Source: a virus
Taxonomy: Duplodnaviria > Caudoviricetes
Length of the DNA stretch: 64,000 nt
Virus record (IMG/VR): IMGVR_UViG_3300037295_000263
Location: 64,001-128,000 of that record
Direction: 5' to 3' (one strand)
The notes under the pieces were generated by a model. That model made no database searches. It saw nothing but the letters and a program-made list of their open reading frames with translations, and had not been told where the DNA came from. Position numbers and translations under genes: made by a program. Position 1 is the first letter of the stretch, and every line of letters begins with the position of its first letter. Positions 34,022 through 40,800 of this stretch are shown here, piece by piece.

Positions 34022-34911
34022 AAATTCTCAATTTGTTGATGTATCCATATATCTTGGGAAAGTTGCTCTTCCCAAAACTTATTATTATTTAGATTATTAA
34101 TAGCAGTTGATACCATAGTCTTGTAGGCTGATTCAGGACACAAGCCTAGCATATAAGACGATTCGGAAGTATCTGTAAAAAACGTAATGCTGCAGTTGTC
34201 ACGATTTAAATTAGTTTTCCAATTAGCACTAATATTCCATTCTTTATTATTGTTGAATTGTATATAACTATAATCATCTACATCATACGTTCCGTTTGAA
34301 TTAACAGTGCCATAATCAGTACTAAAAATGTCCGATAGATTGTAGTGTTGTTTCGAGTCAGATTTAACAGGTGCTACTTTTGAGTAATCTGCTAATATAC
34401 AATAATAACTAAGCATGTGAGGAATAAGATCCCTGCTTACTCCTCCATATGCCAATGCTTTCGTAGTAAACCAACTTCCAGGATAAGGAATCCTGTTAGA
34501 ATTATTCCATTGGATACTTATTTTATTACTACGTTCGCATTGAGATCGAAACAACTCAATTTCTTCTCTGTATTGATTATTCTTAATCATCATAAATCGA
34601 GTCTTTGGAAAATCCTTAACTAGCTGCGCCCATGCATTAGAATCTTTTACTCCTGGTTTTTCGATTAATACAATTTTACACTTATCTGCAATATTCCTTG
34701 CAATTGCTTCATGTGTAAAATTAGGAGTACAAATTACAGCAATATCATATTGCTTGGTTACTTCTTGGATATTGCCGTAAGTTGCATTTTTTTCAACATC
34801 AGTATCAACAGTATCTACATTGTACTCTAGTTCTAAAAATACATTTTTGTATAACTGTCCTATACCTAGACCTACTATTAAACTATTCAGTTTATTATCT
34901 GCTGATATCAT
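34018..34911 (-). CDS. Gfo/Idh/MocA family oxidoreductase
   Basis: VGLGIG, ICTPNFTH, LIEKP, GGVSRDLIPHML. Confidence 0.8.
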   Translation of the reverse strand: MISADNKLNSLIVGLGIGQLYKNVFLELEYNVDTVDTDVEKNATYGNIQEVTKQYDIAVICTPNFTHEAIARNIADKCKIVLIEKPGVKDSNAWAQLVKDFPKTRFMMIKNNQYREEIELFRSQCERSNKISIQWNNSNRIPYPGSWFTTKALAYGGVSRDLIPHMLSYYCILADYSKVAPVKSDSKQHYNLSDIFSTDYGTVNSNGTYDVDDYSYIQFNNNKEWNISANWKTNLNRDNCSITFFTDTSESSYMLGLCPESAYKTMVSTAINNLNNNKFWEEQLSQDIWIHQQIENL

Positions 34912-36611
34912 TTAATTTCATTTTCCAACTGATCAAGTTTAAGTTTTTCTTCTTCAGAAAATTCCCCGTCGTCATGTAATGTTGATGTGTCGTCGGATAC
35001 TTCCTTAAATAATTTAAAAAAATTATTACTAGAATTAACTGTCTTTTTACCTACCGCTCCTCGAGTTCCAGGTATAGCTTGCCAGAATTTATCATAATAA
35101 TCGATAATAGCAATGGCAGATTCCCTATCTTTTGCAGCAAAAATTTCATTTACTATGTCTTTAAAGTAGGTCCTGTTAAATTTCTCATCTACTAACATTG
35201 CAGGACATAACCCGGCATCGTACTGGCGATTAGCTTCTTGCACAGCACTAATATGCATCCATACATTATGGCCCATCATAATAGCATACGTGAAACTGTC
35301 CCAGCTAGTTTTGTTTACTTTACCCATCCTGTTTACGTTACCCGGTGCATAAACACATATTTCGTTCATCTTAACACCGTCTATAACTGGGCTATTTGTA
35401 AAGTTTTTAAAATGTCCATCTTGCACTAAGACGTCTCTGAATAAACGGGTATCGGCTGCGTATTTTTTGTCGTCAATACTAGGCAACATTCTGTAGATCC
35501 ACTTTTTCCGGTCTGCAATTTCTGTTTGGACATAGATTTGTCCATTTGCTGTTGCAAGAAACGGTGAGGCGCAATCAAAAGATATGGTAAAGTTTTCATT
35601 GTGATGTTTCCTTATAGCACGTTGTATATCGGTTAATAATAAAGCCCATTCTAGTTTACTAGTTCCTAGAAAGTGCATCCAGTCTTGCTGGCCTTTTTCT
35701 AGCAGACCATCGAATTTTAAAGCAACCAGTCTTCGTAATACCAAGTCTACGTCGCACATATTTTGTCCGCCCATCGCCCAACCATTAAAAGCTCGATCAC
35801 CGTAAATTTTAGGATCACAAAAATCTTTCATTTTATTATACCAGTCGTCTGCTTGACCATGATGTTCACCTTGCAGAACATTTAAAAATTTACAAGCACC
35901 AGTACGATTCTTGATAAAATATTCATTGTTATATTTGGTGGCCATTACTGCTTGATCATAATCTTTGACTCCGCTATTTTTGGCGCCGATAGGACTGCGC
36001 CCCACCCATGCTGGGATATCAAGTACCATACCATAATCCATTAATGCATCCATCCAAGTTAACACTTGTTCTCGCTTTTTTTGAGCAGCATCTAATTTTG
36101 CTTGATATACTTTGACGTGGTCAATTTTGGAATATTTTATAGCTCTTTTTTTGTCCGTTTTAGGATTACCAGTAACAGGATCTATTATAGGAACTAACTC
36201 GATTCCTTTAGCAACGGCATCTGCCATTAATGCAGCAACTTCGGGACCGGTAGGGTCCTTCCATTCCCCTTCCCATACTCCTTTGCCGATCTGGAATCCG
36301 CCCGAGTCGCCTAATACCCAACTGTTTGTACGGTCTCGATTTCTAAACATAGATTCTCTGTCGTCATTTTTATTAAGATCCAAATTTGCATGTCCTGCAG
36401 AATACAAGCAATGATCGAAATTAAACAGCCCGTTTACTGGATCTAAAAAATTAAGACCTTCGACATCCGTTACAAAATTTTGAGGAATTCTGCTTGGTTG
36501 TACATACGGGTATCTATGTCTTTGATATCCAATAAACGATGCATAGAATCCTGATGTAGCAGGAAGAAAGTATGCATAGTCGTTTTGAGTTGCTGTTAAA
36601 TTTTTATTCAT
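34908..36611 (-). CDS. dpdA: TGT-fold deazaguanine DNA transglycosylase (DpdA-like)
   Basis: LGDSGGFQ, LDIP, LNVLQG, GWAMGG, MHFLG, SFDCASP motifs of the TGT/DpdA family; clustered with folE and queE. Confidence 0.7.
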   Translation of the reverse strand: MNKNLTATQNDYAYFLPATSGFYASFIGYQRHRYPYVQPSRIPQNFVTDVEGLNFLDPVNGLFNFDHCLYSAGHANLDLNKNDDRESMFRNRDRTNSWVLGDSGGFQIGKGVWEGEWKDPTGPEVAALMADAVAKGIELVPIIDPVTGNPKTDKKRAIKYSKIDHVKVYQAKLDAAQKKREQVLTWMDALMDYGMVLDIPAWVGRSPIGAKNSGVKDYDQAVMATKYNNEYFIKNRTGACKFLNVLQGEHHGQADDWYNKMKDFCDPKIYGDRAFNGWAMGGQNMCDVDLVLRRLVALKFDGLLEKGQQDWMHFLGTSKLEWALLLTDIQRAIRKHHNENFTISFDCASPFLATANGQIYVQTEIADRKKWIYRMLPSIDDKKYAADTRLFRDVLVQDGHFKNFTNSPVIDGVKMNEICVYAPGNVNRMGKVNKTSWDSFTYAIMMGHNVWMHISAVQEANRQYDAGLCPAMLVDEKFNRTYFKDIVNEIFAAKDRESAIAIIDYYDKFWQAIPGTRGAVGKKTVNSSNNFFKLFKEVSDDTSTLHDDGEFSEEEKLKLDQLENEIK

Positions 36612-37421: not shown

Positions 37422-40091
37422 TTATTCAAAAGAAAATAAGTTTACAAAATTGTTGTCGCTTCTTGTAGATTTAATATCCCATTCGAGAACACCGATTAAG
37501 TTTTCTAATTTCTCATCAATAACAGCAGTTTCCATTTCCGCGTCATTAAATGGCAGATCTTTGAACCACTGCGGTAATCTTAATTCGTCGACAGGATACG
37601 CAACACTTGTATGACCTAATGGATTACTTTTTAATTTACAAACAATGACCTTTGCACCGTCTGTAATGTTTATACTATATTTGTCATCCATCATGCGTTT
37701 AAGAGTGTTCCAGTTGATACTAGCTCTAACATGCCCTGGCATATTTGCTTTACCTGCGGTTTTCTCTTTAGCTTGATACAGCGTAATATTATTAGCACGT
37801 TTTGGGCTACCCTTTTCCCATCCGGGCCTTAGTTTAAATTTAGTCCGGAATTCACAAATATGTGCTAGTACTTGTTCTTTTTCAACACCGTTAAGAACCA
37901 TAGTTAGTACTTCATTTAAAAAGTCTTGAATTACAACTGGAGTATCTGACCTTTTAAGATCTAGCCCTAGTGCTTTAATCTTGCCAGGCAATCCATTTAC
38001 ATCTGCTCGTTTTCCTTCCTTATCGTAATAAAGAACTGCATACCTTTTCTTTGTAATAAACAACCCTTTAGATGCAACTAATTCTCTGCCTGCCCGGATA
38101 ACTTCTCCTCTGGATTTAGGACAATGAAATGCATCTTGCATAAATTTAGGAAATGTACTATTCACTTCCTCACCGATAGTATCATACAGTTCAACAATCG
38201 ATTCTTTATTCCATGATAATTTCCCTAAATCGATTTCTTTCTTTAATGTAGGATACGCTGAAAAATAACAACTATCAGTATCTCCATAAATAATCGATTT
38301 TCCAGTATGACTAAATTCACCAGTAATAATCTCGTTAACTTTCCCGGCCATGTGTCGTGCAATTGCTCTGCCAGTTAGAGTAGTTGACTGTCCAATCCGC
38401 TTGTCGAAAAATCTACATCCTGGATTCAGAATTGCACCATATAAACTGTTTAAGTTAATTTTCTTTACTAATTGCCGTTTATCCCAATATTCTTCTTCGA
38501 TTTTATTACCAGCAGCAATTGCATCCTTTAGCTTACTTTGCATTTCTTTACGTTCAGCGTACCATCGTTTTAACAGTCCGGGAATAATTCCTTCCGACTC
38601 GTAGGTAAAGATTGTGCCGTTGGCACTTAACGTCCACGGCTGGTTGCTGTCAAAAATTAAGTCGTGTATTTGTGCAGCCGATAATGTATCGCTTCCGCCG
38701 TTTTCCCAATCTATTTGAATATCTCTTCCGGCTTCTCTGCTCATTACTGCGCTATATTCTAAACTACCAAATATACCTTCCCATGCTGCCGCGAATGATT
38801 TTCCTTTTGCTATCTGTGAATCGATAAAGTCATTAGTGCCATCTTGACGTAACTGTCCTACGATAGTTTCAGGACCCATGTTAAGTGCTCGAATAGCACT
38901 AGGATACAGTGAATTAATATCTAACGATCCAATCCATTCGTGTATGCCTTTTTTAGGATATGCAACATACGCACCTGCTGCTTGATTAGTTTCATTGGGA
39001 TCTCTGTGTTTACGATTAGGAACTATCATTCCTCTTTTATGTGCTTCATTGATGATAGCTTGTTCGGTAACAGCTACTGCTCCCATGGTAGTTTGTAACA
39101 ACACTGTACATTCGTGTGCCAACGTATTAGCGAGATCTAGAAATTTTAATTTTCTATCTAAACTATCTAACAACATAGTATCTTGTCTGTTGTATTCGAT
39201 AAATGTTTTAAAGTCGTTATTATATAATTGATCCAGCGATCCTTCATATTGTGTCTTAGTTTCTCCTAGCTCATATTCTGCAATAGAATTCAAACTGTAG
39301 CTATGACGTTCTTCATACGTATATTTGCGATACAACTCTAAACTATCTAAGTGAACACGTCCTACTAAATCGTAAGTACTAGCAGTCTTTCCGTATTTTT
39401 CATACTCTCTCTTTTTTGGATATTGGCCCCACAAGCAAAATCGTTTAGTATCTTCTTTGCTAAGGACTTTGGTAACTCTATTAACAGTATAAGGAATATC
39501 AAAGCCTTCACTATTCCACCCACTTAACACATCAGCATCTTGTATTAAATCTAAAAACGAATCTAACATTTCCGATTCACTTTTAAATAAAATAGTGTTT
39601 GGGAAATCTTTTACTTGGTGCGTAGCCTCTTCCATAGACAATGTTTTTGGCGGTATTGCTAAGCATACTAAAGTATCGAGCCATTGTAAATGAACTGCTA
39701 TTGCAGTTATTGGCATAAATGCATCTGCAGGCGATGCATATCCTCGTTCTGGGTCAAAATCTACTTCAATGTCAAAGAACGCTACGTTAAGTTTCGGAGC
39801 ATCTTGATTTAGGTAATTATCTTCTAGACAGCGATAAACAGGGTTGATGTCGCTTTCGTGTAATTTCTTATTATTGTGTATTGCCATTTCTTTTCGGTGC
39901 TCTTTTAAGTTCCTGGAACTTACCCGACTCAATGGCTCTTTTTTTATTGATTGAAACTTTCCCTTAACATCATAGTAGTAAAATAAATGTCTAGCAGGAA
40001 ATTCTTTGTAATGCCTCTTTCCATCAGTATCTCGTTCTACAACGTTAATTGCATCTTGATCTCTATTATAAAATGCATCTACATAACTCAT
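37422..40091 (-). CDS. gp43: Family B DNA polymerase (T4 gp43-like)
   Basis: Exo FDIEV, GWNSEGFDIPY, YNRQD; Pol SLDINSLYPS, KINLNSLYG, YGDTDS, KKRY; C-terminal FVNLFSF. Confidence 0.95.
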   Translation of the reverse strand: MSYVDAFYNRDQDAINVVERDTDGKRHYKEFPARHLFYYYDVKGKFQSIKKEPLSRVSSRNLKEHRKEMAIHNNKKLHESDINPVYRCLEDNYLNQDAPKLNVAFFDIEVDFDPERGYASPADAFMPITAIAVHLQWLDTLVCLAIPPKTLSMEEATHQVKDFPNTILFKSESEMLDSFLDLIQDADVLSGWNSEGFDIPYTVNRVTKVLSKEDTKRFCLWGQYPKKREYEKYGKTASTYDLVGRVHLDSLELYRKYTYEERHSYSLNSIAEYELGETKTQYEGSLDQLYNNDFKTFIEYNRQDTMLLDSLDRKLKFLDLANTLAHECTVLLQTTMGAVAVTEQAIINEAHKRGMIVPNRKHRDPNETNQAAGAYVAYPKKGIHEWIGSLDINSLYPSAIRALNMGPETIVGQLRQDGTNDFIDSQIAKGKSFAAAWEGIFGSLEYSAVMSREAGRDIQIDWENGGSDTLSAAQIHDLIFDSNQPWTLSANGTIFTYESEGIIPGLLKRWYAERKEMQSKLKDAIAAGNKIEEEYWDKRQLVKKINLNSLYGAILNPGCRFFDKRIGQSTTLTGRAIARHMAGKVNEIITGEFSHTGKSIIYGDTDSCYFSAYPTLKKEIDLGKLSWNKESIVELYDTIGEEVNSTFPKFMQDAFHCPKSRGEVIRAGRELVASKGLFITKKRYAVLYYDKEGKRADVNGLPGKIKALGLDLKRSDTPVVIQDFLNEVLTMVLNGVEKEQVLAHICEFRTKFKLRPGWEKGSPKRANNITLYQAKEKTAGKANMPGHVRASINWNTLKRMMDDKYSINITDGAKVIVCKLKSNPLGHTSVAYPVDELRLPQWFKDLPFNDAEMETAVIDEKLENLIGVLEWDIKSTRSDNNFVNLFSFE

Positions 40092-40104
40092 TATTATTCT
40101 CCTA

Positions 40105-40156
40105 TGTCATTTTTAGGCTGACAAATACCTAATTGTGGTTTATGGCCCACAGACCT
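40105..40156 (-). promoter_or_regulatory. Candidate structured RNA leader (two tandem H-type pseudoknots) abutting the polymerase RBS
   Basis: GGU-C-UGUGG-GCC-AUAAA-CCACA, then UUAGGU-AUU-UGUCA-GCCUAA-AAA-UGACA, then UAGGAG. Confidence 0.6.
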
Positions 40157-40161
40157 TTCTT

Positions 40162-40461
40162 TTACATACTTATTAATCTTATTAATCCTACGCTATCTAT
40201 ACTGACTAAAAGAAGATAATTAGCGACCATACCAGTCGAGCGTCGGGTCCATGCAGACCAACCAAATATAATACATTGAGTAATAAAGATAGGATAAAGT
40301 ATTAAGAACGGAGGATTCGGCAACGTAGTGGCCATAGTAATAGCACAACCGATACTCATAAACCATGCTGATATTTCCAGCACAAACCTAGCAGGCCATG
40401 CTTTAAAATCATTTTTAGCCCAGTTGAATACGTTAACTGCTGTGCTAGTTACTTGATCCAT
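40162..40461 (-). CDS. Small membrane protein (about 3 TM segments)
   Basis: Hydrophobic 99 aa ORF; TAATG overlap with the upstream gene. Confidence 0.65.
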   Translation of the reverse strand: MDQVTSTAVNVFNWAKNDFKAWPARFVLEISAWFMSIGCAITMATTLPNPPFLILYPIFITQCIIFGWSAWTRRSTGMVANYLLLVSIDSVGLIRLISM

Positions 40462-40727
40462 TATTCTTTTTCGGGCAAGTGTTTAGTAATATCGAGAATG
40501 CTTTCAATTTCTTGCCATTCGTGTTCGTGTTTTTCCCAATCGCCTTTGTGTGCAATCTTGATGGCCTTGTTAATAACAGCAGGTTTAATTTGTAATTCTT
40601 CTGCTACTGCTTTAACTGTTTCTTTCAGTCCTTCTTGTAAATCTTTAACTTCGCGTAGTACATTACTGCCTTCGTTGATTAATCTTTCTAATTTTGCTTT
40701 TTCTTCTGGTCCATACATTTTTGGCAT
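40461..40727 (-). CDS. T4 DsbA/GapR-like dsDNA-binding protein
   Basis: LKETVKAVAEELQIKPAVINKAIKIAHK pattern; 88 aa; AAGGAG RBS. Confidence 0.6.
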   Translation of the reverse strand: MPKMYGPEEKAKLERLINEGSNVLREVKDLQEGLKETVKAVAEELQIKPAVINKAIKIAHKGDWEKHEHEWQEIESILDITKHLPEKE

Positions 40728-40749
40728 GTTTAAATCTCCTTAAGTGTAT

Positions 40750-40778
40750 AGTATACGGTGATAAAAAAAGCCAGTCAA
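40750..40778 (-). promoter_or_regulatory. Sigma70-type promoter TTGACT-N17-TATACT
   Basis: Heads the dsbA-like to polymerase run; its -35 lies inside a terminator hairpin. Confidence 0.7.
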
Positions 40779-40800
40779 TACATAACTGGCTTATTTTTTT
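40761..40800. terminator. Intrinsic terminator AAGCCAGT-N9-ACTGGCTT with A/T tracts on both sides
   Basis: 8-bp stem 40768-40775/40785-40792, just downstream of the 40815 gene. Confidence 0.75.

Follow-up and report, generated by a model that had tools for sequence, protein, structure and literature searches.

Two tandem, covarying H-type pseudoknots abut the Shine-Dalgarno sequence of a family B DNA polymerase gene in uncultured aquatic giant phages

The DNA analyzed in this study, referred to as the window, is a stretch of 64,000 nucleotides from the IMG/VR virus record IMGVR_UViG_3300037295_000263, which is 216.7 kb long and about 59% complete. Its minus strand carries polB, whose ORF (37422-40091) encodes a product of 889 aa with the Pfam DNA_pol_B and exonuclease domains. 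This product shared 25% identity with T4 gp43 over 865 aa (E = 3e-58), and the polymerases of the jumbo phages Phosso, Atu_ph07 and K64-1 were 50%, 44% and 40% identical to it, respectively. Upstream of polB, an ORF of 99 aa ends at 40162 and the polB AUG lies 70 nt further on. The 99-aa ORF had no family match, and by look its translation is hydrophobic. Further upstream lies an 88-aa ORF (40461-40727) that weakly matched phage transcription regulators of the DsbA type. Just ahead of this ORF, at 40750-40800 on the minus strand, a sigma70-like promoter (TTGACT-17-TATACT) is overlapped by an intrinsic terminator made up of a 10-bp hairpin and a U-run. Transcription of polB, jointly with the two small ORFs, may begin at this promoter. 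A T4-type late promoter directly upstream of the leader was considered and rejected, as the T4 late-promoter octamer TATAAATA was strongly depleted across the window (1 occurrence versus 11.8 +/- 2.8 expected from shuffles). On the other side, two genes downstream of polB, a 567-aa ORF (34908-36611, minus strand) had no match in Pfam, PHROGs, NCBIfam or PDB sequence searches, and a DpdA/TGT identity of this ORF was therefore left unconfirmed by them.

Within the 70-nt polB leader, two adjacent H-type pseudoknots, here named PK1 and PK2, occupy positions 40155-40105 on the minus strand (Table 1). Each unit is built of a 3-bp helix S1 (GGU/GCC), a loop L1 of 1-3 nt, a 5-bp helix S2 and an A-rich loop L3, and there is no L2. 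The AGGAG motif stands 7 nt before the polB AUG. A preliminary description of this locus had proposed two tandem H-type knots without L2, with an A-rich L3 and an S1 closed by a U.G pair, abutting the polymerase Shine-Dalgarno sequence (SD). The letters are present and the covariation given below agrees with them; the compensatory stem changes that it claimed were likewise found, as both S2 and both S1 helices covary among orthologues. Other details had to be corrected. The span given there, 40105-40156, holds the letters but starts one base early, position 40156 being an A. The 6-bp S1 of unit 2 (UUAGGU from 40132, GCCUAA to 40113) does pair in the window and in a few relatives, but only its GGU/GCC core is conserved. 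L3 of unit 2, given as 3 nt, is actually 5-6 nt long. The framing of S2 that had been claimed for both units applies to unit 2, which is framed by UG..CA, but not to unit 1.

Table 1. Coordinates of polB and of the leader features in the window (sequences written as mRNA).
Feature	Position	Strand	Remarks
polB coding region	37422..40088 (start codon to 40091)	minus	family B (T4 gp43-like) DNA polymerase, candidate regulated gene
polB start codon AUG	40089..40091	minus	
Shine-Dalgarno AGGAG	40099..40103	minus	single U (40104) between PK2 and SD
PK2 whole, GGU-AUU-UGUCA-GCC-UAAAAA-UGACA	40129-40105	minus	
PK2 S2 3' strand, UGACA	40105..40109	minus	
PK2 loop 3, UAAAAA	40110..40115	minus	5-6 nt, NNAAR
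PK2 S1 3' strand, GCC	40116..40118	minus	
PK2 S2 5' strand, UGUCA	40119..40123	minus	partner UGACA 40105-40109
PK2 loop 1, AUU	40124..40126	minus	
PK2 S1 5' strand, GGU	40127..40129	minus	partner GCC 40116-40118
Spacer between knots, AUUA	40130..40133	minus	mostly 3-6 nt in relatives, variable; UUA 40132-40130 can lengthen PK2 S1 to 6 bp
PK1 whole, GGU-C-UGUGG-GCC-AUAAA-CCACA	40155-40134	minus	
PK1 S2 3' strand, CCACA	40134..40138	minus	
PK1 loop 3, AUAAA	40139..40143	minus	consensus AYAAN
PK1 S1 3' strand, GCC	40144..40146	minus	hairpin-loop letters 1-3
PK1 S2 5' strand, UGUGG	40147..40151	minus	partner CCACA 40134-40138
PK1 loop 1, C	40152..40152	minus	1-3 nt, variable among relatives
PK1 S1 5' strand, GGU	40153..40155	minus	partner GCC 40144-40146

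The whole 216.7-kb record was scanned for units of this kind. Units with GGY/GCC were found only at these two adjacent sites; the other matches were two AGC/GCU units, and shuffles expect 1.45 matches of any kind. A covariance model of the element gave one match in the record (74 bits), with the runner-up at 12.9 bits (E = 2.5). The 217-kb record thus has a single copy of the motif, the one before polB. In the folding analysis, the nested minimum free energy was indistinguishable from that of shuffles (z = -0.57). Since the thermodynamics are unremarkable, the support for the knots rests on the comparison with relatives. When treated as plain hairpins, the extended 6-bp S1 and S2 of PK2 compete with each other, with nested energies of -5.4 versus -3.9 kcal/mol, and it is the knot that lets the 3-bp S1 core and S2 coexist.

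The polymerase search of IMG/VR revealed more than 600 related contigs, of which the best 80 were 77-85% identical. Among these best 80, all but one (L043) carried the full two-unit element before polB. The same architecture, with stems altered by compensatory substitutions, was observed in more than 200 distinct IMG/VR relatives with polB 64-85% identical, indicating that the element is widespread in uncultured aquatic giant phages. A covariation test on related polB leaders had been named in the preliminary description as a check, and these relatives answered it with both conservation and covariation. In a polB-anchored alignment of 64 distinct leaders, which were picked without a structural filter, 99.4% of the cells of PK2 S2 were paired, and the GGU and GCC triplets were among the invariant letters. 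Three pairs of PK2 S2 had 7-54 double changes each among 94 distinct sequences. For PK1 S2, about 30 arm combinations were found in relatives, representing more than 15 clearly different stems and all of them complementary (for example GCGG/CCGC, GAUCA/UGAUC, AACCA/UGGUU, ACUCA/UGAGU and GGCAG/CUGCC). The commonest PK1 S2 class has a 1-nt bulge, which explains the lower pairing percentage of the PK1 hairpin in the MAFFT-based count.

The S1 helices, which form the knots, called for a different approach. Because GGU/GCC is near-invariant close to the window, the IMG/VR scans fixed only the flanks and left the partner base free. When the first G of PK2 S1 was altered, all nine family loci had AGU with a GCU partner, and the reverse scan with the last C altered returned the identical nine loci. 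When the closing G was altered, nine of nine family loci were GGU/ACC, so that U.G had become U-A. No non-pairing S1 variant was found in the partner-free scans. For the middle pair of PK2 S1, neither IMG/VR nor 241 million metagenome records yielded an altered family member: an altered middle C gave 41 matches in the metagenome scan, none of them family members, and an altered middle G gave one match, which was unrelated. That no family member had an altered middle C indicates that the middle G-C of S1 is invariant in that context. In the set of 94 distinct PK2 sequences, selected on S2 pairing and not on S1 pairing, S1 was paired in every cell (G-C in 86 and A-U in 8; U.G in 92 and U-A in 2). 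PK1 S1 was GGU/GCC in 113, GGC/GCC in 18, GUC/GAC in 4 and AGU/GCU in 1 of 136 distinct leaders, and pairing at control offsets was seen in 0 of 272; RNAalifold found this helix unprompted.

Further S1 types came from a more distant clade, whose polB is 64-68% identical to that of the window: AGC/GCU, AGU/ACU and GGC/GCC in PK2, and the four-pair helices AGUC/GACU, UGUC/GACA, GGUC/GACC and GGGC/GCCU in PK1. The S1 changes across relatives comprise G-C to A-U, G-C to U-A, and U.G to C-G or U-A. Parsimony on a FastTree tree of 220 distinct polymerases gave at least 4 switches at pair 1 and at least 9 at pair 3; this count treated a leader as carrying the knot only when its S1 paired, a bias of which the partner-free scans are free. 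The frequent U.G pairs assign the fold to the mRNA strand. Cross-pairing of the PK2 GGU with the PK1 GCC was also considered and was rejected, because covariation stays within the units (L068, L194 and the L279 clade). With the S1-L1-S2-S1'-L3-S2' order of the H-type class present, and with both S1 and both S2 helices covarying, the comparison demonstrates, at the level of sequence, a fold of two tandem, coaxially stackable H-type pseudoknots.

Throughout the family, S1 has 3-4 bp with a constant central G-C, S2 has 4-6 bp, L2 is absent, and the S2 hairpin loop is of 8-9 nt and often ends in UAAA. L3 is of 5-6 nt (NNAAR). Its AA is invariant in the polB-anchored alignment too, whilst in the pattern-based sets it formed part of the search patterns for PK2, and for PK1 the constant AA at positions 3-4 was required by the parse. 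Across the wider family, these two A's and usually the purine after them are the only conserved unpaired letters. L1 of PK2 was AUU in 138 of the 143 distinct leaders of the window's clade, for which the parse allowed only [AG]U[UG], and was variable at 1-3 nt in the 64%-identity clade. L1 thus crosses an S2 of 4-6 bp with 1-3 nt, and L3 crosses an S1 of 3-4 bp with 5-6 nt. By general pseudoknot rules, such loop lengths are sterically feasible. The SD begins 0-3 nt past PK2 in all 143 distinct leaders (0-5 nt were allowed by the parse), and the polB start codon is UUG in 58 of the 143 (41%). A TAAATA-like box was also noticed ahead of PK1 in about 75% of distinct leaders, mostly 9-11 nt and in some about 4 nt upstream (for example L003, L335 and L342); the nearest equivalent in the window is TAAGTA, 14 nt upstream. 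Part of this box coincides with the end of the upstream ORF, around its stop; the box may thus represent either a promoter element or a by-product of coding.

The two units are not equally constant. PK1 was missing or swapped for another hairpin in L043, L194, L277, L278, L282 and L234; PK2 is the core of the element and PK1 an accessory copy that is replaced or lost in some relatives. In L043 (2900-2960, plus strand), a terminator-like 9-bp hairpin followed by UUUUU was found in the place of PK1, and PK2 was retained. In L278 (8701-8800, minus strand) and L282 (3090-3175, minus strand), PK2 and the SD precede a leader ORF of 15-20 codons and not polB. These leader ORFs begin with MSNQNW... 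and MSNKNW... and end in a stop that shares an ATGA with the polB start, an overlap suggesting that polB translation is coupled to a regulated leader peptide. This arrangement indicates that the knot stays with the ribosome-binding site and not with the polB coding sequence. In the last 30 nt before polB of L367, the S2 3' arm (UGG) overlaps the SD (UGGAG), and that knot would partly sequester its ribosome-binding site. Several close relatives have no motif at all. In the motif-less L296, L299, L300, L305, L310 and others (about 360-403), we observed a TTGA..-N17-TATAAT-like box with no SD, the TATAAT-like box lying about 6 nt before the polB AUG. The polymerase mRNA of these relatives would be leaderless or near-leaderless, a quite different expression route.

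An Rfam 15 scan (cmscan, E <= 10) over 39500-40800 gave no match in the leader (40092-40161), preQ1-I included, and the nearest matches were terminator-like, at 40711-40800. Such a scan had also been named as a check in the preliminary description, whose remark that the preQ1-I consensus is not matched agrees with this result. No relative of the leader was found by DNA similarity among GenBank phages, the covariance model did not match the polB leaders of Phosso, Atu_ph07, K64-1 or T4, and the PK2 pattern had 0 matches in 185,579 GTDB species genomes. Literature searches returned no description of the motif. The element is therefore a new structured-RNA family outside Rfam 15, and its presumed function would be of a known kind, that of a phage translational leader operator.

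Several known systems resemble parts of this element. T4 gp43 represses its own translation via a leader hairpin, in which the UAAC/UAAA loop letters matter for binding, and the T4/RB69 polymerase binds the hairpin plus sequence overlapping the ribosome-binding site (PMC3014915). Like the T4/RB69 gene 43 operator, the element described here belongs to the leader of a gene for a homologous family B polymerase and adjoins the ribosome-binding site, with short-stem hairpins, A-rich loops on the 8-nt scale and one target per genome. In T4, 5 bp make up the stem of the operator hairpin and 8 nt its loop. However, the gene 43 operator is a single hairpin of 16-18 nt that ends 8 nt before the SD and has no pseudoknot evidence (PMC3014915), whereas here two knotted units with GCC+NNAAR loops were found, the second of which ends 0-3 nt before the SD. 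The model built from the present element (R1) did not match the T4 gene 43 leader, and no homology in sequence or structure was detectable between them. The knot of T2/T4 gene 32 is similarly a small, coaxially stacked H-type pseudoknot in the leader of a phage replication gene, and it serves autogenous translational control (PMC3014915). It is located some 67 nt upstream, where it seeds the cooperative binding of gp32 along a long, unstructured A+U-rich tract that reaches to the ribosome-binding site of gene 32 (PMC3014915). Unlike it, the polB knots are tandem and SD-abutting, with a 3-bp S1 and a 5-nt L3 and without an A+U-rich tract. The preQ1-I (RF00522) and other mini-pseudoknot riboswitches are also small and H-type, are located at the ribosome-binding site and have an A-rich 3' loop, and the A-rich loop here is expected to lie in the S1 minor groove as in preQ1-I. 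In contrast to preQ1-I, whose model includes a conserved L2 cytidine and pairing of the A-rich tail, there is no model match, L2 is absent, the SD lies outside the knot, very few unpaired letters are conserved, and the proportions are reversed, with 3 bp in S1 and 4-6 bp in S2. The pseudoknot of the rpsO operator is stabilised by its protein and traps the 30S subunit without hiding the SD. Its presence in the E. coli rpsO (S15) operator is documented (PMC3014915), and the analogy with the polB leader is one of mechanism only, as gene, organism and fold details are unrelated.

The adjacency to the SD, the single copy, the link to the ribosome-binding site despite a leader ORF and the weak starts together suggest control of polB initiation, and most likely the element is a translational operator acting at the adjacent ribosome-binding site. 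By analogy with the phage systems above, the DNA polymerase itself may repress its own translation through the knotted leader, a tentative reading that we put at somewhat less than an even chance. Free polymerase in excess of its DNA substrate would bind the knotted leader, and the leader-bound polymerase would block or trap the 30S subunit, by the same logic as T4/RB69 gp43 acting on its own leader hairpin. Since the SD is unpaired in the conserved fold, repression would need a steric block or entrapment; since the loop letters vary (NNAAR), any binding protein would read shape more than sequence. Further points count against the polymerase as the binding protein: the identity to T4 gp43 is only 25%, the T4 operator is a plain hairpin that the present covariance model does not match, the motif is wholly lost in several close relatives, and some T4-related polymerases do not autoregulate (PMC3014915). 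A stimulator of readthrough or frameshifting for the upstream ORF was rejected on inspection of the leaders, which have no slippery site and contain further in-frame stops; the distance from the stop of that ORF to the knot is 6 nt in the window and about 15 nt in many relatives. An intrinsic terminator was rejected as well, as both hairpins lack a downstream U-run on the mRNA strand and only the opposite strand was flagged.

A constitutive, ligand-free structural element that fixes the translation level would account for several of the same observations. Its rigid twin knots might insulate the ribosome-binding site from sequence further upstream, leave the SD free of pairing, stack against the helix that the SD forms with the anti-SD, attract the 30S subunit (e.g. 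through protein S1) or shield the 5' part of the message from RNases. The SD is never sequestered in the conserved fold and no conserved alternative fold was seen by eye, few unpaired letters are conserved across clades, and there is free variation in how long L1 and S2 are and in whether PK1 is there at all, which fits a role for shape alone; the motif-less relatives, moreover, use a wholly different start region (TATAAT-N6-AUG). However, this motif serves one gene only in 217 kb, where a general enhancer or insulator should recur at others, and the strict SD distance of 0-3 nt with the frequent UUG suggests a tuned, repressible initiation, so we regard a purely structural role as rather unlikely. 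The single target per genome also makes a dedicated regulator unparsimonious, and in the genome scan the unit did not recur, whether before an SSB gene or elsewhere. It is thus improbable that the element is an operator for another protein, be it a phage translational repressor, a single-strand-binding protein or a host factor, even though the RegA and gp32 operators are precedents, that of gp32 using a pseudoknot (PMC3014915), and a pair of like sites in tandem would match a dimeric protein.

Ligand sensing, the other branch of the preliminary description, has been weakened. A tandem riboswitch would require each knot of about 25 nt to be a new, exceptionally small aptamer, for a nucleotide, a dNTP or a 7-deazapurine, with ligand-stabilised PK2 hindering the 30S subunit. 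Tandem aptamers are known, and the H-type topology with an A-rich L3 does resemble preQ1-I and SAM-II, but no Rfam riboswitch was matched at E <= 10 and, without L2, the position that gives preQ1-I its specificity is missing. Only the AA (plus R) is conserved among the unpaired letters across clades, L1 varies in length and sequence, and neither an expression platform nor an SD-sequestering alternative fold was evident by eye. A PTPS/QueD-like gene is present in the same genome, outside the window (G000:C1:138723-139136), but the Pfam models of TGT and QueC had zero matches in the 217-kb record, and the deazaguanine ligand once suggested for this leader, preQ1 included, finds no support. Altogether we consider a tandem riboswitch very doubtful. 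If it were true, sensing of the nucleotide pool or of a modified-base metabolite would couple the synthesis of the replicase and of the downstream genes to precursor supply.

Autogenous repression by the polymerase, our preferred reading, would have wider consequences. A 2010 review named the gene 32 knot as perhaps the sole viral example of a pseudoknot then known to act in translational autoregulation (PMC3014915). If the polymerase binds the polB leader, these phages would provide another viral pseudoknot autoregulator and a second, structurally distinct means by which a polymerase limits itself, and the T4 paradigm would extend far beyond the T-even phages. As it is very small and modular, and as compensatory variants of it abound in nature, the element offers an easy experimental system and a possible part for synthetic translation control. 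In the phages themselves, it is placed where control over the replicative polymerase would be exerted, and it probably sets the amount of polymerase made.
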